The notes beneath the pieces are model-generated. The model ran no database searches. It was not told where the DNA came from and saw only the letters and a list, made by a program, of their open reading frames with translations. The translations under genes and the position numbers were made by a program. From positions 130,815 to 194,814 of the forward strand of contig CAZYIA010000003.1 of NCBI GenBank assembly GCA_964646765.1: a stretch of DNA of 64,000 nucleotides. Reading direction: 5' to 3'. This document shows positions 1 through 48,041 of this stretch, piece after piece; position 1 is the stretch's first letter; each line of letters begins with the position of its first letter. This stretch comes from an uncultured Candidatus Saccharibacteria bacterium. GTDB lineage: Bacteria > Patescibacteriota > Minisyncoccia > Phycocordibacterales > UBA9973.

Positions 1-120
1 AAGGCCAAAGAAGGTTCTTAGGCGCTAGACTCCGGCGGGGAGGCCCGTTATAGCTAAATGAAGCGGCCCGAAAGGGAAGTAAGGTGGTACCGCGGGGAAG
101 CCCGTCCTTATGCAGTAAGT
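1..120 (+). ncRNA. rnpB: RNase P RNA (bacterial type), 3' portion, partial at window edge
   Basis: AAGGCCAAAGAAGG at 1-14 resembles the L15 GGCCAAA region. TAGCTAAATGAAGC (51-64) resembles the P18-region 'CCUAGAUGAAUGAC'. GGAAGCCCGTCCTTA (96-110) resembles the P4 3' strand 'ACAGAACCCGGCUUA'. No protein coding potential is visible. This rests on motif resemblance only; no covariance model was run. Confidence 0.4.
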
Positions 121-148
121 TATTATTGCCTAAGGACGGGTTTTATTT
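101..148 (+). terminator. Stem-loop (cccgtcctta / taaggacggg) followed by a TTTTATTT tract; terminator or terminal helix of rnpB
   Basis: A 10-bp perfect inverted repeat at 101-110 / 131-140 with a 20-nt loop, followed by a T-rich run ending directly at the ileS ATG (149). Confidence 0.4.
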
Positions 149-3100
149 ATGGAAGAACAAAAAAACGAAAAATCAAAAGTAGCAGAGCGCGAGGAAAAAA
201 TCCTCGAATTTTGGCGTGAAAATAAAACGTTTGAAAAGGCGCTCGAAAAAGAATCACCACGTGGAAACTACGTGTTTTATGATGGGCCACCATTTGCTAC
301 TGGTACACCACACTATGGTCATATTCTTGCTTCAGCAATTAAAGATGCTATTCCTCGCTATCAAACGATGCGTGGTTTTCGAGTGCCACGTCGATGGGGT
401 TGGGACTGTCATGGTTTGCCAATTGAAAATATTGTTGAAAAGGATTTAGGTATTTCCGGCAAAAAAGAAATCGAAGCTCTCGGCGTAGAAAAATTTAATG
501 AGTATGCTCGTAGCAAGGTGCTTACCTATGTAGGGGAATGGAAAAAAACTGTCGAACGTATGGCTCGATGGGTTGATTTTGATGGTTCATACAAAACAAT
601 GGACAATACGTTCATTGAGAGTGTTTGGTGGGCACTTGGTGAACTCAATCGCCGCAAGCTCGTGTACGAAGGTGTTCGCGTTTTACCATATTGTCCGCGC
701 TGCGAAACACCGATCGCAAACTCAGAAATTGCGATGGATAACAGCTACAAAGACATCACTGATATTTCAGTGTATGTAAAACTCCCACTGGCCAGCGAGG
801 AAAAAACTTCTCTTATTGCTTGGACAACAACACCGTGGACGCTTCCTGGGAATACTGCAGCGGCAGTTAATCCTGAGCTTACGTACATTAAAGTAGAGCA
901 CGGAGAAGGTGAACGCGAGTTTGCAATTCTTGCGAAAGATCGATTCCCCGCAGTAAAAGACAAATTTAAAAATCCGGAAATTATTGCTGAGTTTCCAGGT
1001 ACTAATCTCATTGGTAAGCGCTATACTCCACCGTTTCCATATTTTACGAATGCCAACATCCCAAATATAGAAAATGGCTGGCGAGTATATGGGGCTTCGT
1101 ATGTAACCACAGATGCCGGTACCGGCATTGTGCACTTGGCCCCCGCCTATGGTGAGGAAGATATGGATCTTGCTCTTATACACCACATTCCTTTTGTGCG
1201 TCATGTTGGCCACGATGGCAAATTTACTTCCGAAGTTACTGATTTTGTTGGAAAGTCTGCGAAGCCAAAAGGGGAAGAGAAAGACGGTCATCAGGTTTCC
1301 GATATTGAGGTTATTAAGTATTTAGCCCCACGTGGGACATTGTTTGCCAAAGAAAAAATAGTTCACTCCTATCCTCATTGTTTCCGTTGTGAAACCCCAC
1401 TATATTACTTTGCTATCCCAGCATGGTTTATTCGAGTGTCTGAAATTAAGGAAACACTTCTTGCGAAAAACGAGGAAATGAATTGGGTGCCCGACCACTT
1501 AAAACACGGACGTTTTGCCAAAAGCATGGAAGGCGCACCAGATTGGAATATTTCTCGAAACCGTTACTGGGCAAGCCCGCTACCAATTTGGAAATCAAAA
1601 GAGGGGAAGACTATTTTCGTTAGTTCCTTAGATGAACTTAAGGGTCAAGCAAAGAAATCTGGAAATACTTACTTCACGGTCCGTCATGGTCAAGCGGCAA
1701 ATAATACCGCAGAATTTTTTACTAAAGAGAATTTTCTCAAAGCCCAGTTGACGGAAGAAGGAAAGAAACAGGTTCGAGAAAGTGCCAAAAAGTTCACTAC
1801 CAAAGTTGACTACGTTTTTTGTTCGCCATTTGAACGTACTCGCGAAACGGCAAAAATTTTCTGTGAAGAATTACAGATCAAAGAAGATCAGATCATCTAC
1901 GATGATCGTTTGAAGGAGTGGGATATTCCTTCCGAATACGAAGGCAAACCTATGCCGGAATTCAAGCAGTACTTTGACGTAAATTACGCATACTCAACCA
2001 AGCGAGCATTTCAAGATGGAGAAAATTTTGCTGATATGGTAAAGCGAGTCGGTGAATTTCTCTACGAAATTGACCAAAAGTATACCGGTAAAAACATTCT
2101 TATTGTGGCACATGCTGGTTCGTGTCGTGCATTCTCATTTGTGGCAGAAGGGAAGCGATTCTCAGACCTTGAAAAAAGCGGCCCGTTATATTTGCCTAAA
2201 AATGCAGAAGTGCAGTCACATGCGTTCGTGCCGTTACCACATAATGCAAACTATGAACTTGATTTTCATCGCCCGTATATTGATACCGTCACGCTTGTTG
2301 ATGAGGATGGAACCGAGTACACCCGAATTCCGGAAGTAATTGACTGCTGGTTTGAATCTGGTTCAATGCCATTTGCCCAAGACCATTTTCCATTTGAACG
2401 ACCAAATTGGAAAAATGAAAATTTTCCCGCTGGATTCGTAGCTGAATACATTGCTCAAACACGTACATGGTTCTACTACACTCACTTACTTTCAACCGTG
2501 CTTTTTGATCATGCACCTTTTCACAATGTGGTAACTACAGGTACGGTACTTGCTGAAGACGGTCAGAAAATGTCCAAGTCAAAAAAGAACTTTCCTGATC
2601 CATGGCTTATCTTCAATAAATATGGCGTAGACGCGCTGCGTATCTATCTTTTAGGGAATCCGATTATGCGCGGGGAAGATCTCAATTTTTCTGAACGCGA
2701 AGTGGCTGATATTTATCGCAAAGTTATTATGCGCTTTGATAACGTCCGCGAATTCTATGAACTCTATCGTGATCGTGAACTTGAAAAAAAGCTCGGTGAA
2801 GATGAACCAGAAAGTAAGAATGTGTTGGACGCTTGGATTCTCGCACGTCTCCGTCAAGTTGTTTCAGAAGTTACTGAAGGGATGGAAAAATATGAACTCG
2901 ACGAAGCTCTTCGGCCGCTTGCTCCATTTGTAGATGATCTTTCGACTTGGTACTTGCGCCGTTCGCGCGACCGTATAAAGGATGGTGAAGAAGCAGCAAA
3001 GAAAACTCTCTACTTTGTGCTTACAACATTTGCGAAACTTCTTGCCCCGTTCGCTCCGTTTGCCGCTGAAGAAACCTTCCGAGCGCTTCGTACTGAAACA

Positions 3101-3655
3101 GACCCTGAAAGTGTGCATCTCTCAAATTGGCCAGAAGTTGCTACCCCAGATGCCCTTCTTCAAAGTCACGTTCTTAGAGATCACATGGCCGAGGTTCGAG
3201 AACTTGTGACGCTTGGTCTTGAGGCTCGCCAAAAAGCCAATATTAAAGTTCGCCAACCGCTTCGAGAACTTCGAGTGAAAAATCATGAACTTACCGGAGA
3301 ATATGCTGAACTGGTTACCGACGAGCTTAATATCAAAGCAGTAGTTCACGATAAAACTCTTACTGAAGAGGTTTGGCTCGACACATTGGTGACACCAGAA
3401 CTTAAAGAAGAGGGAACACTTCGAGAATTTATTCGCGCAGTACAAGATGCTCGTAAAAGTGCAGGACTTCATCCTAATGATCGTATTACTCTCGTGCTTG
3501 GGGTAACTGATTCAAGCAAAGGCTTTGTTGTAAAATACGAAGAAGCAATTGTGCAGGAAGTTGGTGCGGTTACAATCTCGTATAAAGAAGTCTCTGGCGA
3601 ACCTGTTACTATCGAAACACTCACATTTACGATTGAAGTTCAAAAGGTAAGTTAA
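149..3655 (+). CDS. ileS: Isoleucyl-tRNA synthetase with an in-frame inserted histidine-phosphatase (PGM-family) domain
   Basis: Class I HIGH motif (PHYGH) and KMSKS are present, together with the IleS-typical WGWDCHGLP, ISRNRYWASPLPIW and DFHRPYID...DCWFESGSMP. Residues ~510-680 carry an RHG histidine-phosphatase signature (FTVRHGQAANN ... IVAHAGSCRAF), which is not part of canonical IleS. Confidence 0.9.
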   Translation: MEEQKNEKSKVAEREEKILEFWRENKTFEKALEKESPRGNYVFYDGPPFATGTPHYGHILASAIKDAIPRYQTMRGFRVPRRWGWDCHGLPIENIVEKDLGISGKKEIEALGVEKFNEYARSKVLTYVGEWKKTVERMARWVDFDGSYKTMDNTFIESVWWALGELNRRKLVYEGVRVLPYCPRCETPIANSEIAMDNSYKDITDISVYVKLPLASEEKTSLIAWTTTPWTLPGNTAAAVNPELTYIKVEHGEGEREFAILAKDRFPAVKDKFKNPEIIAEFPGTNLIGKRYTPPFPYFTNANIPNIENGWRVYGASYVTTDAGTGIVHLAPAYGEEDMDLALIHHIPFVRHVGHDGKFTSEVTDFVGKSAKPKGEEKDGHQVSDIEVIKYLAPRGTLFAKEKIVHSYPHCFRCETPLYYFAIPAWFIRVSEIKETLLAKNEEMNWVPDHLKHGRFAKSMEGAPDWNISRNRYWASPLPIWKSKEGKTIFVSSLDELKGQAKKSGNTYFTVRHGQAANNTAEFFTKENFLKAQLTEEGKKQVRESAKKFTTKVDYVFCSPFERTRETAKIFCEELQIKEDQIIYDDRLKEWDIPSEYEGKPMPEFKQYFDVNYAYSTKRAFQDGENFADMVKRVGEFLYEIDQKYTGKNILIVAHAGSCRAFSFVAEGKRFSDLEKSGPLYLPKNAEVQSHAFVPLPHNANYELDFHRPYIDTVTLVDEDGTEYTRIPEVIDCWFESGSMPFAQDHFPFERPNWKNENFPAGFVAEYIAQTRTWFYYTHLLSTVLFDHAPFHNVVTTGTVLAEDGQKMSKSKKNFPDPWLIFNKYGVDALRIYLLGNPIMRGEDLNFSEREVADIYRKVIMRFDNVREFYELYRDRELEKKLGEDEPESKNVLDAWILARLRQVVSEVTEGMEKYELDEALRPLAPFVDDLSTWYLRRSRDRIKDGEEAAKKTLYFVLTTFAKLLAPFAPFAAEETFRALRTETDPESVHLSNWPEVATPDALLQSHVLRDHMAEVRELVTLGLEARQKANIKVRQPLRELRVKNHELTGEYAELVTDELNIKAVVHDKTLTEEVWLDTLVTPELKEEGTLREFIRAVQDARKSAGLHPNDRITLVLGVTDSSKGFVVKYEEAIVQEVGAVTISYKEVSGEPVTIETLTFTIEVQKVS

Positions 3656-3658
3656 GAT

Positions 3659-4570
3659 ATGACACATTGGGTTTTTATTGCACTCGTTCCTCCTATTATT
3701 TGGGCGGCAATCAATCATGGTGATAAGTATGCAGTTGATCGCTTCATGGTTGGGAGAAATCCTGGTGCGCTCATTATTACTACTGGCGCGTCGGGACTGG
3801 TGATGCTTCTAGTCCTTTCGCTTTTTGTCCAAGGAAGTGAAGCAACAGCATTCCAAGCAGGGATTATGATCCTCGCGGGCTTTTTACTCGCACTTTCGTA
3901 TGTGCCATACATGTATGCTCTCGCAAAGGATGAAGCTTCGAATGTTGCGCCACTTTTTCAGCTTATTACACCGCTTGTCTTTGTTTTAGCCTTCTTTGTA
4001 TTAGGAGAGACGCTTTCAGTTCTTCAAGTTTTTTCCGGCCTACTTATTATCCTGGGAGCACTTATTCTTTCAACACGAATTGAAGCTCTTACGTTTAAAC
4101 TACGAACATTCCTTCTGATGAGTCTCACGGCGCTTATGATTGCGGCGAATGTGGTTATTTTTAAATCAACAGCGATCAACAGCATCTTTTGGGATGCCGT
4201 ACGGTACGATCTTGTAGGGGTAGCTCTCGCAGGCCTCGCACTCTTTCTCTGCGTGCCGGTGTACCGTCGCGACCTTTTTAGTGCCATTCGCGAACATGGA
4301 GCACAAGTTATTACAGTAAATGCTGTTATTGAAGTAAGTAATGTTCTCGCTCGTATCGTAAATGGTTATGTGACCCTTTTTGTGCCAGCAACCTTAGTGC
4401 AATTTGTGAATGGTTTCCAGCCAGTGTTTATCGTGCTTTTTGGTATGGTGCTTACCCGCTGGTTCCCATCATGGGGGAGTGAAGCTCTTGATCGAAAATC
4501 ACTCTTGCGTAAGGGTTTGGCAGTATGTGTAATGGTTCTTGGTCTTATTCTTCTTTCGATCTATAACTAA
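3659..4570 (+). CDS. DMT/EamA-like multi-pass membrane transporter
   Basis: 303 aa and about 10 hydrophobic helices. An N-terminal WAAINHGDKYAVDRF motif has EamA-like topology. This is a family-level guess. Confidence 0.45.
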   Translation: MTHWVFIALVPPIIWAAINHGDKYAVDRFMVGRNPGALIITTGASGLVMLLVLSLFVQGSEATAFQAGIMILAGFLLALSYVPYMYALAKDEASNVAPLFQLITPLVFVLAFFVLGETLSVLQVFSGLLIILGALILSTRIEALTFKLRTFLLMSLTALMIAANVVIFKSTAINSIFWDAVRYDLVGVALAGLALFLCVPVYRRDLFSAIREHGAQVITVNAVIEVSNVLARIVNGYVTLFVPATLVQFVNGFQPVFIVLFGMVLTRWFPSWGSEALDRKSLLRKGLAVCVMVLGLILLSIYN

Positions 4571-4573
4571 TCT

Positions 4574-5143
4574 ATGCGAGAAATTGAAGTAAAAGCTAGG
4601 GTGCCGGATCGAGAAAAACTTCTCGCTGCCTTTGCTGGTAAAGGGATCGAACTTTCCTCATCTCAAAAAGAAGTTGATACGCTGTTTTCTGTTACACCGG
4701 ATTTTTATGAAGAGTATGGAAAAGGAATACCACCAGCTGTTGGCCTTACTCGTGTGCGAGAAAAATCAAACGGTGAGGTAACGGTGACATATAAAAAAAG
4801 AGGCGGGGGAGTACATCTCGACAAAGTTGAATATGAAGTCGTCGTTTCTGACGCAACGACGGCAAAGCAACTCTTCGAAGCTATTGGCCTTATCCCAATT
4901 CTAACTATGGACAAAACCCGACAGAAGGCCCATCTTGGAGAGTACGAGGTCTGCTTAGATGAGGTTGCTGGACTTGGAACTTTTATTGAAATTGAAAAGT
5001 TATTACCTGAAGAAGACAAAACTTCAGGAGAAGAAATACAAAAAGAGCTTTGGGGTACGTTACTCTCTTTAGGTATTTCACGTGATGATGAAGTACATGT
5101 TGGTTACGATATTTTAAAATATGAGGCTGACCTCAAAAAGTAG
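4574..5143 (+). CDS. CYTH-domain protein (class IV adenylate cyclase / triphosphate tunnel metalloenzyme family)
   Basis: The N-terminal MREIEVKARV matches the CYTH ExExK motif. It is an acidic protein of ~189 aa, a size typical of CyaB-like proteins. Confidence 0.55.
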   Translation: MREIEVKARVPDREKLLAAFAGKGIELSSSQKEVDTLFSVTPDFYEEYGKGIPPAVGLTRVREKSNGEVTVTYKKRGGGVHLDKVEYEVVVSDATTAKQLFEAIGLIPILTMDKTRQKAHLGEYEVCLDEVAGLGTFIEIEKLLPEEDKTSGEEIQKELWGTLLSLGISRDDEVHVGYDILKYEADLKK

Positions 5144-5144
5144 T

Positions 5145-5717
5145 ATGAAAAAAGTTTTCCTTATTCATGGATTTGAAGGACTACCCAATGGAGGGTGGCG
5201 GCCTTGGTTATTAGGAGAGCTTGCTCGAGAAAAAAAAATCTATGGTTGCGCGCTTCCTATGCCGACGCCATACGAACCCAAGGTTTCAGAATGGGTAGCT
5301 GAAATTAATCGTGTCTCATTCCCAAAGGAAGATTCAGTTGTTCTTGTTGGTCATAGTCTCGGGGCAACAGCCGTTTTACGTTACCTTGAAACACTACCCC
5401 CTCAAATTTCTATCGCGGGAGCAGTACTTGTTTCTGGTCCATTAGAAAATCTCCCCGGTGTTGAGAATAGTAAAAACATGCAAAGTTTTTTTGAACAGCC
5501 GTTTGAGTTTGAAAAAATTAAAGCATCATGTAAGAAATTTGCTGTTATCCATGGTGCCAACGACAACGTCGTGCCATTTTCTCATGCAGAGAAACTCGCT
5601 AAGCACTTAAACTGCGAGCTCATTTCGATACCGGAGGGTTTCCATCTTTCAGGAGGAGCTGGTTGGTATAAATTACCAGAAGCGTTCACTGAGATTCTAA
5701 AAATACTTGGTGAGTGA
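5145..5717 (+). CDS. Alpha/beta-fold serine hydrolase (YdeN/RBBP9-like)
   Basis: LIHGFEG and a GHSLGA nucleophile elbow at about the expected spacing, in ~190 aa. The start was moved to ATG 5145 just after the upstream stop. Confidence 0.55.
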   Translation: MKKVFLIHGFEGLPNGGWRPWLLGELAREKKIYGCALPMPTPYEPKVSEWVAEINRVSFPKEDSVVLVGHSLGATAVLRYLETLPPQISIAGAVLVSGPLENLPGVENSKNMQSFFEQPFEFEKIKASCKKFAVIHGANDNVVPFSHAEKLAKHLNCELISIPEGFHLSGGAGWYKLPEAFTEILKILGE

Positions 5718-5719
5718 GT

Positions 5720-6301
5720 ATGCATCCCATTTATCATACCAATGCATTTATTGTAGGTTCGCAACCAAAAGGCGAGGCGAATAGATCGTATCTTTTGTTA
5801 ACCAGTGACATGGGAGTATTTTCTGCCGTTTCTCAAGGAGTGCGGCTCGAGAAATCAAAGTTGCGCTACTCACTCCAAGATTTTTCATATGCTCGTATCG
5901 ATTTAGTGCGTGGTAAAGATGTGTGGCGAATAACATCGGCTACGCCGATCGAAACATTTGCTCGAGTTTATCAAAGTGAGCGAGGTATGCGATTTCTCAA
6001 GAATCTTGAAAAGCTCATGCGACGTCTTGTTCGTGGAGAGGTGGCTCATCCAACAATTCTTTCAGACGTGCTCGATGTTCTTCGTTTTTTTAATAAACAA
6101 GAGAGTCAAATTATCCATGCTCCAGTAGAATTAACCCTGTTTCTCCGTATTTTGTATACCCTTGGGTACGTTTCCCCAACGAAGGTGTTTGAAGAGTACC
6201 TCGGAGCTCCATTTCAGCCAGAAAGGATACAAGAAGCAACGTTTCCTAAAAAAGAGGTTATTGAAATTATCCGACTGGCGCTTGCGGAAAGCCAATTGTA
6301 A
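5720..6301 (+). CDS. recO: DNA repair protein RecO (short form)
   Basis: The N-terminal OB-fold region NAFIVGSQPKGEANRSYLLLTSDMGVFSAVSQGVRLEKSKLRYSLQDFSYARIDL matches the RecO_N pattern (G...vAKGaRr.kSr...Lq.F). No obvious Zn-finger is present. Confidence 0.55.
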   Translation: MHPIYHTNAFIVGSQPKGEANRSYLLLTSDMGVFSAVSQGVRLEKSKLRYSLQDFSYARIDLVRGKDVWRITSATPIETFARVYQSERGMRFLKNLEKLMRRLVRGEVAHPTILSDVLDVLRFFNKQESQIIHAPVELTLFLRILYTLGYVSPTKVFEEYLGAPFQPERIQEATFPKKEVIEIIRLALAESQL

Positions 6302-6373
6302 GCGCATTAAGCTCTAAGCGTCATAGAAAGGGCTGACGAGTCGAATCTCGCTTGCTATACTTGCCTATATCAT

Positions 6374-8323
6374 ATGATTTCAAATGAGAATGAAAAGCCG
6401 CATGGTTTAGAGGATGTAACAAAAAAACTCTATAGCCGAGATGAGAAAGTTTTACCCGCACGGCGAGTGGGTATTTTACATAGTTTTAAAAAAGCTGTAG
6501 CTACTACCTGGAATTCTGAAAAGAAAGAGCAAGTTAAAGAAACTATTGCTACGCTCTCTGATCATGCCACCCATACCCCCTTCTTTAAGAAATTTTTTGT
6601 TGCCTCGAGTATTTTCTTTTTGGTCGCTTTGGCAATCGGAGGCTACCTCTTTTTCTTTGGCGGCGGGTCAGTTTCTTCAGAGAATGTAGGAATTAATATT
6701 TTAGGAAATGCTTTTACCTCTGGTGGTGAAAATCTTCCTCTGACGCTTGAAATTAGTAATAAAAACGCTATCCCACTCGAGCTTACTGATCTTATTATTG
6801 AGTACCCTAAAAGTGGGACAAGTCTTACCGATAACCCATCAGATATTGCTCGCGAACGTCAGTCAATTGGTACTGTTGAGGCTGGAAAAATTATCGAGCA
6901 TAAGGTAGATCTAACACTGTACGGAAAAGAGGGAAGCGTTAAACAAATTAAATTTACTCTTGAATTTCATGTGCCAGGATCAAACGCGGTATTTCAACGC
7001 GAAAAATTATTTGCGGTAAATATTAGTTCAGCGCCAATTAGTCTTACGGTGACCGCGCCAAACTCAACTACGGCTGAACAGGATTACACTGCAACTGTTA
7101 CCGTGGCAGCAAACACAACACGCTCTATTCCAAATATGCTTGTGCGCGTTGATTATCCAACTGGGTTTAAATTCCAGAGTGCAACGCCGCAGCCGACCTA
7201 TCTTTCAAACGTATGGAATATTGGCACGGTAGAACCTGGTAAACCAATTGATATTCAAATCAAAGGCACGCTTTCTGGAGAAGATGGTGAAGAGCGTTCG
7301 TTTAGAGTATATACCGGTGAAGCTAACCCGTCAGACAAAAATGAAATTGGTGTAGTGTATCAATCAACTCTCCACACTGTTGATCTAGTTCGTCCGTTTA
7401 TTGAAGCAACACTTGTGGTTAATGGCCAACGTGGTCCTGAAGTTACTATCAGTCCTCGCTCAACTATTACTGTTGAAATTCCATGGGCAAACAATCTGCC
7501 ATCATCGGTACTTGATGCTGAAATCAAAGCGACTATTTCTGGTAACCTCATTGATCGTACAACGGTCCAGCCTCGTGGAGGTTTCTTTAACTCGTCAGAA
7601 AATAGCATTATCTGGAATCGGGACACAGACGAAACGTTTGGTACGCTCGAACCAGGCGAGCATGGCAGCGTAGGCTTTACGTTCTCTACGTATAGTCTCT
7701 ACCACGACAATCAACTAGCTACGAATCCTACAGTTTCGGTTGATGTTTCAATTTCTGGTAAACAACCACAAGAAGGTAATTTCCTCCAGGCGGTGAATAG
7801 TTTTGCAAAAACAACAGCCAAGCTCACCACTGATTTTGCTTTCTCTGGTCAAGCGTACTACCACAGCGGACCGTTTGTAAACAGTGGACCACTTCCTCCA
7901 AAAGTTGATCAAAAAACCACATACACTGTTCGTTGGGCGCTTACTAGTTCGGCAAACAGTGTAAAAAATGTTGTGGTTCGAGGGGCACTTCCTCCGTATG
8001 TTCATTTCTTGGGTAATGTTTCGCCAGATGACGAAGATCTTTCACTTGACCCAATTACAGGTGAGGTTGTTTGGAACGCGGGTACAGTAGTTCGTGGTGC
8101 TGGTCTTACTGCTGATAGTGATCCGCGAGCGGTGTACTTCCAAGTTGAACTTACTCCATCTCTTTCGCAAATTGGTGATACTCCAACACTGGTTCTTGAA
8201 TCAAAAGCAACTGGGGTAGATACCTTTACCGGATTCCCACTTACATCAACCTGGCGTGAAATTAACACCCGGGTGTTTAATGATGCTGGATATCAGCAAG
8301 GTACCGACCAGGTAGTGCAATAA
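6374..8323 (+). CDS. Hypothetical membrane-anchored surface protein with repeated beta-rich domains
   Basis: 649 aa with an N-terminal TM helix (FFVASSIFFLVALAIGGYLFFF). It is Thr/Ser/Val-rich, with a recurring 'TGEVVWNAGTV / TLEPGE' type of motif reminiscent of DUF11-like conserved repeat domains. Confidence 0.4.
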   Translation: MISNENEKPHGLEDVTKKLYSRDEKVLPARRVGILHSFKKAVATTWNSEKKEQVKETIATLSDHATHTPFFKKFFVASSIFFLVALAIGGYLFFFGGGSVSSENVGINILGNAFTSGGENLPLTLEISNKNAIPLELTDLIIEYPKSGTSLTDNPSDIARERQSIGTVEAGKIIEHKVDLTLYGKEGSVKQIKFTLEFHVPGSNAVFQREKLFAVNISSAPISLTVTAPNSTTAEQDYTATVTVAANTTRSIPNMLVRVDYPTGFKFQSATPQPTYLSNVWNIGTVEPGKPIDIQIKGTLSGEDGEERSFRVYTGEANPSDKNEIGVVYQSTLHTVDLVRPFIEATLVVNGQRGPEVTISPRSTITVEIPWANNLPSSVLDAEIKATISGNLIDRTTVQPRGGFFNSSENSIIWNRDTDETFGTLEPGEHGSVGFTFSTYSLYHDNQLATNPTVSVDVSISGKQPQEGNFLQAVNSFAKTTAKLTTDFAFSGQAYYHSGPFVNSGPLPPKVDQKTTYTVRWALTSSANSVKNVVVRGALPPYVHFLGNVSPDDEDLSLDPITGEVVWNAGTVVRGAGLTADSDPRAVYFQVELTPSLSQIGDTPTLVLESKATGVDTFTGFPLTSTWREINTRVFNDAGYQQGTDQVVQ

Positions 8324-43642: not shown

Positions 43643-45565
43643 ATGGTTTTTCAACGCCGCTATAGGCTACTGATAACTTCTCTCGTTACACTTTTCTTTT
43701 ACGGTGCTGGCGTTTCCTATGCTATGACGCTCGTAGCGCCTCATACCGTACTTGATCCAGTTGGTCTTCCTGGAGCGTATTCGGTGCAAACTGGTCCAGC
43801 CGGTTCTTCTTCCTCTATTCAATATAACGATGCCGGTGCTTTTGGTGCTGATCCAAACTTTACTCGCAACCCTCTCGGTACGGATTTTAATGTCATCTCA
43901 GATATTGGCACAGGAGTATCTGCCCGTATTCAGCAAAGTAGTTCGGTATTAGGTATAGGAATAAAAGGAACAGCGTTTTTGTATTCCGATAATAATTATG
44001 TATCTAGTTTTACGGGTATAGTAGCCGGGGACTTTACTGCTGTAGGTGGGGAAGCTAACGCAATGCTTATTGGTTACCAAGCGTTTAGTGGAGGAACTTC
44101 AGCTACTATTACACCAACGTATGATGCTGGTTCTGACACGTCTACTATTGGAGTTTCCACGAAAAATAGCACAGGAAAGGAGGCCCGTGTTGGAGTACAG
44201 GCAAACCCAACAGGAGGTAATATTAGTTTTAATTTTGGTGGTTCAAATAATTACTACTTTCCAGATACAGAACCTACTATAGGTACAGTTTTAGGATACA
44301 CAGGCTCTCATCAACTCGGTTGGGTTTCTGCTGGTGGTGGCGGTGGAGTAACAATAGGTAATCCAATTACCGGAGGCACTGGCGACCGTATTTTGTTTGA
44401 AGATGCTTCAAACAATCTTCGAGAAAGTAATAATTTAATATTTGTTGATACAACTGGTTATTTTGATGTTTCTTTTGCGGGTAGTACTCATTTCTTAAGT
44501 AATCCTTCAAGTGGGCAGTACTATATGGGTACTAACGGCGGAAATAAAACACTCATTCAGATACTTGATGGTGGTACCAATGAAATTTCAAATAGTGTAA
44601 ACGGTCAATTCTACGTTCAACAAACAAATGGCCCAAGACTTATTGATGGAAATACTAACACGTTTAATCTCTACCTTGGTGATGTAGGGCATAATGCAAA
44701 TACTACCTCTATCGAGCTCTTAGACTCTGCTGCACAGATACATCTTGTTGCTCACTCAACTGGAATTGGTTCTAGCGGTTTAATTGAAATTGGTGACAGA
44801 AACAACGATGGTAATAGCACGAAGTTTAGTTTGAATGATTTTGCTAGACAAGTATTTGTTCAAACAAATGGAGATTTTGGAGTACAGAATTTTTCAGGAC
44901 AACGTGCTATCGATGTTGATTTCTCATCGGGATTTTATTTTGCAGCAGGTGATGCTAATGCTGTTGCAAATGGTACGAAACTTACCGTCAACGACAGCAC
45001 TTCGCTTGTTACTATTAATGCAGCAAATGGGTTGGTAGTTAATGATAATAATTCCCACACATGTACTGTTGATCCGAACGGCGGCACCTGTACTTCTGAT
45101 GAACGTCTCAAAACTAATATTACTGATCTTCCTTCGACTACTCTCAATACTCTTGCTGGCCTTCGCACCGTTACCTACACCTGGAACAGTGGTGCTGATA
45201 TGACAACAAAGCATATTGGTTTTTTGGCACAAAATGTTCGCGATGCGTATCCAGAACTCGTTAGTACTGACCCAAATGGATACCTAGGTGTAAATTATCC
45301 AGGGTTCACCCCACTTCTTGTTGAAGCATTGAAAGAAGTGAAGTTGCAGCTTGATTCGCTTGATACTCTTATAACTACCAATACGTCATTTACTGCTCAC
45401 ATGCGAGAATGGTTGGGAGATACGGCAAATGGAATTGCTCGTATTTTTGCAGACAAAGTTGAGACGCATGAACTGTGTGTTGATGGTCAGTGTCTAAATG
45501 AGCAGGATGTGCGTGACCTTCTACAGTTGCGCAACCAAGTATTGGGCACCCTGGTACAGTCCTAA
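43643..45565 (+). CDS. Secreted fibre-like protein with a C-terminal intramolecular-chaperone (Peptidase_S74 / endosialidase chaperone-like) domain
   Basis: An N-terminal hydrophobic anchor, then a conserved VAPHTVLDPVGLPGAYSV motif, then a Gly/Asn/Thr-rich beta region. The C-terminus SDERLKTNITDL...HIGFLAQNVRDAYPELV...GYLGVNYPGFTPLLVEALKE matches the tail-fibre chaperone consensus. Confidence 0.6.
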   Translation: MVFQRRYRLLITSLVTLFFYGAGVSYAMTLVAPHTVLDPVGLPGAYSVQTGPAGSSSSIQYNDAGAFGADPNFTRNPLGTDFNVISDIGTGVSARIQQSSSVLGIGIKGTAFLYSDNNYVSSFTGIVAGDFTAVGGEANAMLIGYQAFSGGTSATITPTYDAGSDTSTIGVSTKNSTGKEARVGVQANPTGGNISFNFGGSNNYYFPDTEPTIGTVLGYTGSHQLGWVSAGGGGGVTIGNPITGGTGDRILFEDASNNLRESNNLIFVDTTGYFDVSFAGSTHFLSNPSSGQYYMGTNGGNKTLIQILDGGTNEISNSVNGQFYVQQTNGPRLIDGNTNTFNLYLGDVGHNANTTSIELLDSAAQIHLVAHSTGIGSSGLIEIGDRNNDGNSTKFSLNDFARQVFVQTNGDFGVQNFSGQRAIDVDFSSGFYFAAGDANAVANGTKLTVNDSTSLVTINAANGLVVNDNNSHTCTVDPNGGTCTSDERLKTNITDLPSTTLNTLAGLRTVTYTWNSGADMTTKHIGFLAQNVRDAYPELVSTDPNGYLGVNYPGFTPLLVEALKEVKLQLDSLDTLITTNTSFTAHMREWLGDTANGIARIFADKVETHELCVDGQCLNEQDVRDLLQLRNQVLGTLVQS

Positions 45566-45686: not shown

Positions 45687-48041
45687 ATGTTTAAAAAGTA
45701 CCGAGTAGTTACCGGAATCGCTATTTTTCTTTCCCTCTATACGGGGGCGTTATGCGCTTTTGCAACTACCTATGTTGCTCCTGGTACCGTGCTTGATCCC
45801 GCTGGTCTTCCTGGTGGTTACACCGTTGGACCTTTTTTGTCATATGGTGGTGCTGTTACCACAGGGCACGATAACGAGGTTCTCTATATGGATGGCAGTG
45901 GTAACTTAGTTAGTGATTCAAATTTTGTTCGGGACGCTTCAACAGGTGAGACGCTCATAAGCCAAGATCAATCAGGCATAACGGCTGGAGTTGGAATGTC
46001 TCAGACACTTTTTGGAGGCTTACCTGCTGTTAGTTTTATTCGTCAGGATAGTAATGGTTCAGCAGTTGCTGGTTTATTTGATACAACTTCACTTGGAGGT
46101 AGCGCGTATACTTTTTATGTACATACTCAGGACTCAATAGTAAACTCGCAGGCTCAATTGTTTACCCTTCCTCACTCAATTGGTGGAGGAGTGGCAAATG
46201 CTACTGGTGAGCAAGGATCTTTTAATATACAAGATGATAGTGCCGCGTTACGTGTAGATAATCAGAATGGCGGTAATAATGATGTTGTTCAACTCGGTGT
46301 GGATTTAGGTACAGGGTTGGGTACTCAGTATGCATATCTTGAATTCAGAGATGTTGCTAAACGCTACCTCGCAAGATTTGGTTCGAATGGTCTTACCCTC
46401 GATTTTGATAACGGGGCAAGTACCCCAGGATTATTTTATTCTTTTCCAGTTACTGATGGGACTAGCGGTCAAGTACTTGCAACTGATGGCTCTGGTCAAA
46501 TTTCATGGGTATCAACTTCTGCAACGATCCAAGGGTATACTTCCGCAATCCCTGCTCTGCTCAATACGGCATTAGGTGTAAATACAGCAGATGTCGGAGT
46601 TGGGTATTCAAATACTTGGATAGGCGCAGGTGCTGGTAGTTCTATGACGGTAAATAACAGCGCGCCGTATTCTCGAAATACATTTGTTGGCGCATTTGCC
46701 GGAAGTAACATAACTACCGGAACTAGTAACGTACTTGTTGGATATCAGTCTGCTTTTTCTACAACTAATGCAGACTATAACGTTCAGATTGGTACTGATA
46801 CTGAACTTTTTGATGGTGCACAAAATACTGTTTCTATTGGTCAGAGTGTGAAAGCTGGTGGTATTACCAATATTCTTATTGGGTATGCTGCAGGAAGTGG
46901 GGGAATTGATAGTTCAAGTGCTCGCAATATTGGTATGGGGTATTCAGCTTTGTCTGCGCTTACCACTGGAAGTGATAACGTTGCTTTAGGTACTGATGCA
47001 GGTGTTGGTGTAACCACAGGTAGCGACAATATTCTCATTGGTAAAAATGCCACCGCAACGGGAGACGGTTCAATTGTTATCGGAAACAATCTCTCAGCTC
47101 CTACAGATAAATTAGTCCTCATTGGTGGTTTATTTGAAGGAGGATATGATCCTGCTGGTTTAAATGGAGTGTATGCGTTCCTTGGAGATCGCTATAATGC
47201 AGGACATGGCACCGTGCTATCGGTTGACGATAAAAACCAAAAGATTAGATTTTACTTTGGCGCTAATAGCTACACATTTCCTTCAGCGGACGGCACTATG
47301 AACTATCTTCTTGCAACTGATGGTTCGGGAAATCTCTTTTGGCAGGATCCAACACTTGTTCCATCAGATCGTACGCTCAAAACAGATGTTGAATCACTTC
47401 AGTATGGTCTCTCAACTATCATGAATCTTAACCCAGTTTCGTATACACTGACTGCAAATAATAAACGCCAAATTGGTTTTATTGCACAGGATGTTGAACC
47501 AATCGTTCCCGAACTTGTCGGTGAGGTTGCTGATGGTAAGAAAGGTTTGGCATACGGACAGCTTACTGCGGTTATTGTGAAGGCAATTCAAGAACTTAAT
47601 ATGAAGGTAGAAAATATTCAGCCGCTTTCAAGTGAACCATCCTCACTTATTGATCAGTTTACTTCCGCTATTCTTCACATTCGTGGTTTAGTTGTTGGGT
47701 CATCAGAGTATCGAACGGGTATTACTCTTTACGATGAAGTAACTGGAGAACCATACTGTCTTTCTGTCGCGGATGGGCAGCCAAAAAGTGTTGCCGGAGA
47801 ATGTGGATCAGGAGTTTCTTCTTCAGGATCTACTTCTAATTCGACAAATAGTGATACTAGCATAGATGATCAAGGCGTATCAGGAAGTACACCTGCTGAT
47901 GACGCTACGACCTCTTCAGATACTTCTTTAGACAGTACAACTACTGTTGTAGATGCTTCAAATAGTTCCTCAAATGGGTCAACAAGTGAGGATAGTACCA
48001 CCCAAGGAGAAACAGCAGATAGTTCTACGGGAACTGAATAA
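45687..48041 (+). CDS. Paralogous secreted fibre-like protein with a Peptidase_S74-like chaperone domain and a Ser/Thr-rich C-terminal tail
   Basis: The N-terminus (TYVAPGTVLDPAGLPGGYTV) is conserved with the upstream gene. SDRTLKTDVESL...QIGFIAQDVEPIVPELV...GLAYGQLTAVIVKAIQELN fits the chaperone consensus, followed by an S/T-rich low-complexity tail. Confidence 0.6.
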   Translation: MFKKYRVVTGIAIFLSLYTGALCAFATTYVAPGTVLDPAGLPGGYTVGPFLSYGGAVTTGHDNEVLYMDGSGNLVSDSNFVRDASTGETLISQDQSGITAGVGMSQTLFGGLPAVSFIRQDSNGSAVAGLFDTTSLGGSAYTFYVHTQDSIVNSQAQLFTLPHSIGGGVANATGEQGSFNIQDDSAALRVDNQNGGNNDVVQLGVDLGTGLGTQYAYLEFRDVAKRYLARFGSNGLTLDFDNGASTPGLFYSFPVTDGTSGQVLATDGSGQISWVSTSATIQGYTSAIPALLNTALGVNTADVGVGYSNTWIGAGAGSSMTVNNSAPYSRNTFVGAFAGSNITTGTSNVLVGYQSAFSTTNADYNVQIGTDTELFDGAQNTVSIGQSVKAGGITNILIGYAAGSGGIDSSSARNIGMGYSALSALTTGSDNVALGTDAGVGVTTGSDNILIGKNATATGDGSIVIGNNLSAPTDKLVLIGGLFEGGYDPAGLNGVYAFLGDRYNAGHGTVLSVDDKNQKIRFYFGANSYTFPSADGTMNYLLATDGSGNLFWQDPTLVPSDRTLKTDVESLQYGLSTIMNLNPVSYTLTANNKRQIGFIAQDVEPIVPELVGEVADGKKGLAYGQLTAVIVKAIQELNMKVENIQPLSSEPSSLIDQFTSAILHIRGLVVGSSEYRTGITLYDEVTGEPYCLSVADGQPKSVAGECGSGVSSSGSTSNSTNSDTSIDDQGVSGSTPADDATTSSDTSLDSTTTVVDASNSSSNGSTSEDSTTQGETADSSTGTE

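Follow-up and report, generated by a model that had tools for sequence, protein, structure and literature searches.

An Apparently Active Histidine Phosphatase Domain Nested in the Isoleucyl-tRNA Synthetase of Paceibacterota

Introduction

What does a phosphatase do inside an aminoacyl-tRNA synthetase? The question is raised by a gene of a 64,000-nucleotide (nt) stretch of contig CAZYIA010000003.1 (assembly GCA_964646765.1), hereafter the window, in which ileS, the gene for isoleucyl-tRNA synthetase (IleRS), carries in frame the sequence of a second enzyme, a histidine phosphatase. Aminoacyl-tRNA synthetases are among the most conserved enzymes, and extra catalytic domains in the synthetase body, such as connective polypeptide 1 (CP1) and the INS domain of ProRS, have so far proved to be tied in function to tRNA charging. 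We describe here an apparently active phosphatase that is nested in IleRS and kept over at least hundreds of species of an ultra-small lineage of the candidate phyla radiation (CPR), in some of which it occurs up to four-fold and at three sites of the synthetase. Both domain families are well known, and the novelty lies in their nested arrangement: full-text literature searches returned no description of an IleRS with a nested histidine phosphatase, and NCBIfam holds no model for a phosphatase-bearing IleRS. The sequences themselves are already public in NCBI, JGI, and ENA, for example in the Nomurabacteria metagenome-assembled genome (MAG) GW2011_GWA1_36_15 (locus L019). We consider both the nested architecture and the catalytic competence of the domain to be highly probable.

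A Complete Type-2 IleRS Carries a Phosphatase Domain in Frame

The gene is a single uninterrupted open reading frame (ORF; 149..3655, + strand) of 1168 amino acids (aa), with neither a stop codon nor a frameshift, and it scores 837.6 bits against the ileS equivalog model TIGR00392, whose curated cut-off is 621.4. Pfam recognizes in it the tRNA-synt_1, anticodon-binding, and C-terminal DUF5915 domains, the tRNA-synt_1 match being interrupted by PF00300 (His_Phos_1), which occupies aa 511-674 (nt 1679-2170; E 7.6e-28, 97.9 bits against a gathering threshold of 21.7); scanned alone against PF00300, the insert gives an E-value of 2.1e-29 and 103 bits. Base composition is even over the insert region. 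The landmarks of the synthetase are as follows.

149..3655, + strand: ileS, type-2 isoleucyl-tRNA synthetase with a nested histidine phosphatase domain (ORF, Pfam, NCBIfam, PDB alignment, Foldseek)
311..322, + strand: HIGH signature, here HYGH, aa 55-58 (motif; invariant in 118 relatives)
743..1378, + strand: CP1 editing domain, aa 199-410 (Thermus thermophilus IleRS editing-domain structure 1wk8, E 2.3e-32)
2567..2581, + strand: KMSKS signature, aa 807-811 (motif; kept across 118 relatives)
2828..3265, + strand: anticodon-binding domain PF08264, aa 894-1039 (E 1.2e-31)
3278..3649, + strand: IleRS C-terminal domain PF19302 (DUF5915), aa 1044-1167 (E 2.3e-18)

The synthetase is intact and of type 2, that is, eukaryote/archaea-like. 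Its nearest solved relatives are the yeast, human, Candida, Priestia megaterium (IleRS2), and T. thermophilus enzymes (phmmer E-values from 1e-199 to 1e-207), type-1 IleRS structures giving far weaker matches than type-2 ones, and the threonine-rich editing motif WTTTPW (aa 225-230) is invariant among 118 relatives. The mupirocin-resistance enzymes MupA and MupB share the type-2 class with the window IleRS, yet the latter is neither of them, as it misses both exception models (689 and 656 bits against a cut-off of 1900). It also misses the cut-off of NF040702, the model for IleRS with a GNAT domain (314 bits against 1999), and Pfam finds no acetyltransferase domain in the window protein.

A reading made earlier from the sequence alone had described an in-frame histidine phosphatase inside IleS, in a continuous frame with intact HIGH and KMSKS signatures on either side, and had quoted two motifs of it, FTVRHGQAANN and IVAHAG. 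All of this was borne out: the PF00300 match lies within one ORF that exceeds the TIGR00392 cut-off, the two motifs contain R512-H513-G514 and H655, respectively, and the synthetase motifs that flank them are invariant in relatives. The coordinates then proposed for the insert, 1660-2230, do cover the domain but are one base out of frame, the frame starting at 1661.

The Nested Domain Keeps the Catalytic Residues of a Branch-1 Histidine Phosphatase

The conservation of the residues predicted to be catalytic was read over the 120 closest full-length relatives, all of which have PF00300 together with the IleRS domains.

1667..2224, + strand: nested branch-1 histidine phosphatase domain, aa 507-692 (family profile hidden Markov model, E 2.6e-69; PF00300)
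1682..1690, + strand: R512-H513-G514, predicted phosphate-binding arginine and nucleophilic histidine (R and H in 120/120 relatives, G in 118/120)
1835..1837, + strand: R563, predicted second arginine of the phosphate pocket (120/120 relatives)
1916..1918, + strand: E590, putative general acid (117/120 relatives, the remaining 3 being alignment gaps)
2111..2113, + strand: H655, predicted second catalytic histidine, in an HAG context (120/120 relatives)

N519 is kept in 114 of these 120 relatives. When the catalytic pentad is read over 274 full-length copies of the domain, it is RHREH in 267, RHRDH in 6, and RHRAH in 1, so that the fourth position is E or D in 273 of the 274. Over the 120 relatives, the mean identity of the insert is 41%, compared with 67% for the N-terminal synthetase core and 72% for the C-terminal catalytic half; that a domain only 41% identical overall should nevertheless keep its catalytic residues indicates that selection is focused on the catalytic site, and the alignments argue that these residues are under strict purifying selection. 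Conservation is poor over aa 591-624, which make up the substrate lid in this family. With a median pI of 5.5 and a net charge of -6, the insert is acidic and thereby unlike a nucleic-acid-binding module.

The type of phosphatase was examined with a profile built from 25 diverse inserts (186 positions). Searched against the PDB, this profile matched along its whole length the phosphatases PspA (4IJ5, E 1.9e-27), PhoE (1EBB and 1H2E, E 1.3e-26), CobC (6NRU, E 1.5e-25), and TIGAR (3E9C, E 4.5e-23). The cofactor-dependent phosphoglycerate mutases (dPGM) and bisphosphoglycerate mutases (BPGM) of the PDB could be aligned over its N-terminal half alone (profile positions 3-112 of 186). The residues following the second histidine also differ: they are A-G here and G-G in the family consensus, mutases having G-N. 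No NCBIfam equivalog cut-off is reached by the insert, neither that of the alpha-ribazole phosphatase CobC (TIGR03162, 79.9 bits against 162.9) nor that of the phosphoserine phosphatase PspA (NF045917, 57.9 bits against 350), even though 4IJ5 is the best PDB match; the dPGM models are missed as well (TIGR01258, 33.5 bits against 81.7; the archaeal NF038349, 68.7 against 225; others far below). The substrate can consequently not be assigned by homology. On these comparisons, the domain is to be classed with the phosphatases of the PspA/PhoE/CobC/TIGAR kind and not with the phosphoglycerate mutases; the initial reading, which saw a branch-1 histidine phosphatase of the phosphoglycerate mutase family, is to be refined in this respect.

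The Phosphatase Is Inserted in the CP3 Module

In an alignment with yeast IleRS, residue 498 of the window protein corresponds to chain residue 489 and residue 704 to chain residue 498, so that about 205 residues (aa 499-703) stand where the yeast enzyme has an 8-residue loop. The insertion point, at yeast residues 489-498, lies in the middle of CP3, between the first CP3 helix and the HRPYID segment. CP3 spans residues 459-526 in yeast and 473-534 in Candida, with a beta-beta-alpha-alpha topology; the Candida, Thermus, and Staphylococcus enzymes differ in the topology of this module, which bears a zinc motif in Thermus, and the CP2-CP3 linker (ARDWNVSRNRYWG), situated just upstream of the insertion, lines the pocket for the tRNA CCA end and reveromycin (PMC7955072, PMC7191050). 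In human IARS1, the outer face of CP3 serves as the protein-protein interface with LARS1 (PMC13439101). CP3 is a peripheral and evolutionarily plastic module whose two ends both return to the active site, and its being a variable surface module would explain that it tolerates an insertion. The two halves of CP3 that enclose the phosphatase are the following.

1550..1666, + strand: CP2-CP3 linker and N-terminal half of CP3 (ISRNRYW, beta hairpin, helix SLDELKG, KKSGN neck), aa 468-506 (yeast alignment, published boundaries)
2225..2341, + strand: return neck and C-terminal half of CP3 (FVPLPHNANYELDFHRPYID...), aa 693-731 (the alignment to yeast resumes at aa 704)

The necks are strongly conserved. 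KKSGN (aa 502-506) is at least 90% conserved, residues P697, H698, N699, D705, H707, R708, P709, and D712 are invariant or nearly so in relatives, and conservation in both KKSGN and PLPHN-NYELD-HRPYID (aa 695-712) exceeds that of the phosphatase domain between these two neck motifs. The zinc knuckle of T. thermophilus CP3 is missing from the window protein; in one relative (P0003), CxxC...CxC cysteines still flank the insert.

Structure prediction, which the sequence-only reading had suggested as a check, gave a confident model. An AlphaFold2 model built with an alignment of 118 relatives has a mean predicted local distance difference test score (pLDDT) of 89.4 and a predicted TM-score of 0.81, alignment-free prediction giving a pLDDT of only 34. 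The phosphatase region has a pLDDT of 89-97, except for one block at 78 (aa 671-680), and both linkers exceed 90. In the modelled aa 507-691, strands and helices alternate as expected for a histidine phosphatase fold, and the domain is preceded by the hairpin and first helix of CP3 (aa 480-500) and followed by the segment with which CP3 resumes. The synthetase core matches type-2 IleRS, Foldseek comparisons with 8C8V, 8WND, 7D5C, and 1ILE giving E-values from 1e-83 to 3e-67 and target-normalized TM-scores of 0.77-0.87.

The Insertion Is Shared by Hundreds of Paceibacterota Genomes

A profile comprising the insert and its junctions was searched against proteins clustered at the 50% identity level. 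At E<=1e-30 it retrieved the representatives of 284 clusters, and each of the best 150 matches the whole profile in one stretch. Identities to the window protein among the 120 closest full-length relatives are 100% for the window protein itself, 83% for one, and 56-61% for the rest, and the list of relatives is saturated with insert-bearing proteins. NCBI names them "class I tRNA ligase family protein" and attributes them to Candidatus Paceibacterota (the NCBI phylum Minisyncoccota), Nomurabacteria, Pacebacteria, and the Patescibacteria group. In a scan of one genome per species, at least 326 genomes encode the insert, under the labels Paceibacterota, Nomura-, Zambryskii-, Campbell-, Kaiser-, Wolfe-, and Taylorbacteria, Minisyncoccia, and Parcubacteria. 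These counts answer the suggestion, made with the initial reading, that ileS genes of related CPR genomes be surveyed, and they agree with its guess of a CPR origin: the host of the window IleRS is a bacterium of the Paceibacterota/Minisyncoccota (Parcubacteria, CPR).

In each of the 80 loci that were fetched, an unbroken ORF carries a single phosphatase domain in the corresponding place, which strongly supports the claim that the domain was inserted and that the gene is neither a fusion, nor a split gene, nor a pseudogene. No repeats and no splicing motifs were found at the insert boundaries. The gene order ileS, recO, large DUF11 protein, class II synthetase is conserved, recO being found in 63 of the 80 loci. 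The E-values exclude chance, and so does the recurrence of one and the same junction over hundreds of independently assembled genomes. A recent horizontal or mobile insertion was rejected in view of the even base composition and of the conserved junction and synteny. As far as genomic distribution tells, the insertion is old and clade-wide, with the pattern expected for vertical inheritance.

Two points of labelling deserve mention. Many MAGs labelled "uncultured Candidatus Saccharibacteria" share the synteny of the window; because this synteny is that of Paceibacteria, the label is probably generic. Another locus (L020) is labelled Nitrospira sp. and probably reflects bin contamination.

IleRS of This Lineage Hosts Further Enzymatic Domains

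Beyond the CP3 phosphatase, some relatives carry additional domains. In eight proteins the phosphatase domain is found twice, and in one fragment four times (P0083, P0056, P0109, P0117, P0065, P0120, P0145, P0071, and P0147), and every copy keeps the catalytic residues. The copies within one protein are 23-36% identical, which implies that they are old and did not arise by recent duplication. Their positions vary (in the numbering of the window protein): the extra copy stands in tandem in CP3 in P0109, after aa ~755-759 in P0056, and after aa ~873-889 in P0120, P0145, and P0065, where it separates the stem-contact region from the anticodon-binding domain.

Other enzymatic domains were also found. 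P0095 has a P-loop AAA_18 (kinase-like) domain (aa 747-863) between CP3 and KMSKS, after aa ~754 of the window protein. An HD phosphohydrolase domain is present, besides the CP3 phosphatase, in the C-terminal PF19302 (DUF5915) domain of P0231 (aa 1130-1211), and likewise in the C-terminal domain encoded by the ORF 3591-7589 of locus L010 (aa 1140-1182) and probably in locus L012. P0074 combines an IS200-type Y1-transposase-like domain in the editing region (aa 340-461) with a C-terminal GNAT domain (aa 935-1063), the latter occurring in the same protein as the phosphatase. The IleRS of this lineage is therefore a frequent host of nested enzymatic domains, mostly phosphate- or nucleotide-processing, and the unrelated nature of the GNAT, HD, P-loop, and Y1-like domains suggests that it is a permissive host for passenger domains.

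One observation concerns the free-standing relatives of the insert. One of the closest (P0006, 320 aa, metagenomic) is fused to a cytidylyltransferase-like domain (PF01467) and represents another pairing of a phosphatase with a nucleotidyltransferase. Around P0004 and P0005, the closest free-standing phosphatases, the neighbouring genes were uninformative.

A T-Box Leader Precedes the Gene

The window opens on the end of a T-box leader, directly upstream of ileS.

1..112, + strand: 3' half of a T-box leader whose 5' part lies beyond the edge of the window (RF00230, E 1.5e-6, model positions 114-219 of 219)
97..148, + strand: terminator hairpin (nt 97-144) and U-run, abutting the ileS start codon (-30.8 kcal/mol, z-score -9.8)

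The T-box sequence AAGGUGGUACCGCGGG is found at nt 81-96, and none of 200 shuffled sequences folds as well as the terminator hairpin. A strict motif search recovered a T-box motif with a terminator upstream of ileS in 13 of 72 related loci, about 1 being expected by chance, and a complete compact T-box is present in locus L005 (3452-3591, E 4.9e-6). The leader of the window scores 34.8 bits against an Rfam gathering threshold of 93; Rfam gives no match at gathering thresholds in the window or in the 13 loci, the T-box being seen at E-value thresholds only, which is why standard annotation would miss it. To our knowledge, T-boxes are not well documented in CPR/Parcubacteria. Such a leader is what one would look for in front of a housekeeping ileS that responds to uncharged tRNA and, because the phosphatase is encoded within ileS, the phosphatase would be expressed under the same signal.

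What Could a Phosphatase Do in IleRS?

From these data, we infer a two-enzyme polypeptide with a second, autonomous active site. In such a protein, H513 would attack a phosphomonoester to form a phospho-histidine intermediate, R512, R563, and H655 would hold the phosphate, and E590 would protonate the leaving group, a mechanism that would be the one of PhoE, PspA, and CobC-type phosphatases. The substrate would be a small soluble phosphomonoester (nucleotide, sugar phosphate, or amino-acid phosphate). What links it with IleRS may then be that a very small genome expresses the two together and in a fixed ratio, aminoacylation chemistry remaining unchanged, and the domain would have become locked in, a nested domain being hard to excise from an essential gene. 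We give a probability of roughly 0.45 to this reading of the sequences, an autonomous small-molecule phosphomonoesterase co-expressed with IleRS, and favour it because of the peripheral position of the domain, its acidic surface and unconserved lid, its small-molecule relatives, and the variety of passenger domains in related enzymes. Several observations nonetheless weigh against it. The linkers are not floppy (pLDDT >90) and the necks are better conserved than the domain that they hold; given such rigid and conserved necks, exact positioning relative to the synthetase could matter. The occurrence of diverged phosphatase copies at three IleRS sites looks like a non-random association, and the CP2-CP3 linker just upstream lines the CCA pocket, so that the domain is not far from the active site. 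Finally, the check for a free-standing PF00300 protein covered the 64-kb window alone and found none there besides the nested domain.

Part of this evidence would be accounted for by coupling in cis, the main rival, which we consider rather unlikely: the phosphatase would take a 2'/3'-phosphate off a damaged or modified 3' end of the tRNA(Ile) that the same enzyme binds, or act on a nucleotide such as AMP from the synthetic site, as a third catalytic site in a connective polypeptide, analogous to the CP1 editing site. Such coupling would make sense of an insertion into CP3 immediately behind the linker that contributes to the CCA/reveromycin pocket, of the confident, rigid linkers with their highly conserved necks, and of the phosphatase copies at three sites in relatives. 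It would also suit the T-box, which ties expression to uncharged tRNA, the ability of PhoE-type enzymes to hydrolyse nucleotides such as AMP, and the HD phosphohydrolase or P-loop kinase-like domain added by some relatives, since HD phosphohydrolases and P-loop kinases are enzyme classes used in RNA-end healing. The acidic insert (median pI 5.5), however, bears no sign of an RNA-binding surface, and the outer face of CP3 in human IARS1 is free to bind a protein while the enzyme works, which suggests that it points away from the tRNA path. Moreover, we know of no histidine phosphatase acting on RNA ends, and there is no clear reason why IleRS alone would need such a phosphatase. A tRNA end or a nucleotide, put forward as substrates in the sequence-only reading, are chemically possible; the aminoacyl-adenylate analogue also envisaged there is unlikely, because histidine phosphatases act on phosphomonoesters. 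The idea of a third catalytic station for tRNA can be taken further, as a long shot: with the HD and P-loop domains of relatives, the phosphatase might take part in RNA-end healing of 2'/3'-phosphates of tRNA(Ile) or, in a variant, strip an inactivating phosphate from the KMSKS loop. If true, a healing module would let the same enzyme recharge damaged or toxin-modified tRNA(Ile), and either version would represent a new repair or immunity function built into an aminoacyl-tRNA synthetase.

Another explanation, an improbable one, is that the domain is a protein phosphatase or regulatory module, a safeguard or switch that would dephosphorylate IleRS itself (e.g., a KMSKS-loop serine) or a partner. 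In other class I synthetases, HipA/HipT-type toxin kinases act on this KMSKS-loop serine, and the histidine phosphatase superfamily includes the protein phosphatases SixA, PGAM5, and Sts-1. A weak match to SixA (E 3.4e-6, below cut-off) goes in this direction, as do the poor conservation of the substrate lid, which is expected if recognition is by tethering instead of by a pocket, and the location of the other phosphatase sites of relatives, which flank the KMSKS region. Yet the closest relatives of the domain are small-molecule phosphatases, the gene neighbourhood contains no kinase partner and matches no known defence or conflict system (PADLOC returned for the window only a marginal, meaningless match), and phosphorylation of IleRS in these bacteria is without direct evidence. 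That the domain could really be a cofactor-dependent phosphoglycerate mutase and provide a step of glycolysis is what its family name and weak dPGM matches (e.g., NF038349, 68.7 bits) would suggest. We rejected a true mutase, a very improbable identity, on the dPGM cut-offs, which lie far above the scores obtained, and on the PDB mutases aligning over the N-terminal half only; the context of the second histidine (A-G, not G-N) and the size of the domain (~186 aa, without the lid and tail of mutases) speak against it too. It is still harder to credit that the domain is an ex-enzyme, kept as a non-catalytic structural or ligand-sensing module: the insert does evolve faster than the synthetase core (41% against ~70% identity), but a degenerate domain was rejected because the catalytic pentad is retained in 267/274 copies, including every copy of the multi-copy proteins. 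As for an artefact, be it an assembly chimera, a frameshifted gene pair or otherwise split gene, a pseudogene, or a recent mobile insertion, it is virtually impossible: the identical junction in at least 326 species genomes and the 80/80 continuous ORFs from independent assemblies refute a chimera, a frameshift, and a split gene, and the even base composition, the boundaries devoid of repeats and splicing motifs, and the conserved synteny agree with this.

Comparison with Known Enzymes

The window protein shares with type-2 IleRS (8C8V, 1ILE, 7D5C, 8WND) the same HYGH, CP core, CP1, CP2, CP3, KMSKS, anticodon-binding, and C-terminal domains, but none of the solved IleRS matched by phmmer or Foldseek has anything at the position of the CP3 insert. 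The latter resembles the short branch-1 phosphatases (4IJ5, 1EBB, 1H2E, 6NRU, and 3E9C) in size (~190-210 aa) and in having the same RHG...R...E...H set; PspA, PhoE, CobC, and TIGAR are however free-standing, whereas both termini of the insert are joined to a different enzyme. The CP1 editing domain of IleRS, ValRS, and LeuRS, a hydrolytic domain that is also nested in a connective polypeptide of this Rossmann fold, is a precedent for a further catalytic site within a synthetase. All enzymes of these three kinds have CP1, which hydrolyses aminoacyl esters and is visited by the 3' end of the tRNA; the CP3 phosphatase, unlike it, is restricted to one clade and would perform phosphoryl-transfer chemistry. 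The curated family NF040702 (ileS_w_GNAT) is likewise an IleRS with an extra enzymatic domain, although the passenger differs (GNAT). Finally, in the bifunctional RNase H/acid phosphatase (Rv2228c type, NF005567), a CobC-like phosphatase is joined to a nucleic-acid enzyme; the insert matches this model below cut-off (E 5.2e-18, 65.5 bits against 326), and the Rv2228c type is an end-to-end fusion with RNase H, in contrast to the nested insertion of the window IleRS.

If the phosphatase is autonomous, it offers a clean natural case of a passenger enzyme locked inside an essential gene of reduced genomes; should it instead work in concert with tRNA or with the synthetase, translation would have a quality-control or repair activity of a new kind. 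There are practical consequences as well. Pathway pipelines keyed on PF00300 could miscall phosphatase-bearing IleRS as phosphoglycerate mutase, and the CP3 loop and the two other loops are natural sites for engineered domain insertion into IleRS.

Neighbouring Genes

The EamA and CYTH genes that neighbour ileS in the window are not conserved beside it in relatives, which argues that they are not partners. The CYTH gene (4574-5143, + strand), two genes downstream of ileS, encodes a stand-alone triphosphate tunnel metalloenzyme protein that, for the same reason, is probably unrelated to the phosphatase. The large DUF11-repeat protein (649 aa; 6374-8323, + strand) has a syntenic gene in 57 of the 80 loci, located across the clade 2-4 genes downstream of ileS, beside recO and the class II synthetase. 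Farther away, two adjacent genes (43643-45565 and 45687-48041, + strand) encode large proteins of 640 and 784 aa, in which Pfam recognizes nothing other than an endosialidase intramolecular-chaperone domain, Peptidase_S74, situated toward the C terminus at aa 485-540 and aa 560-611, respectively. Such a chaperone domain is typically found in the tail fibres of phages or in surface fibres that cleave themselves.

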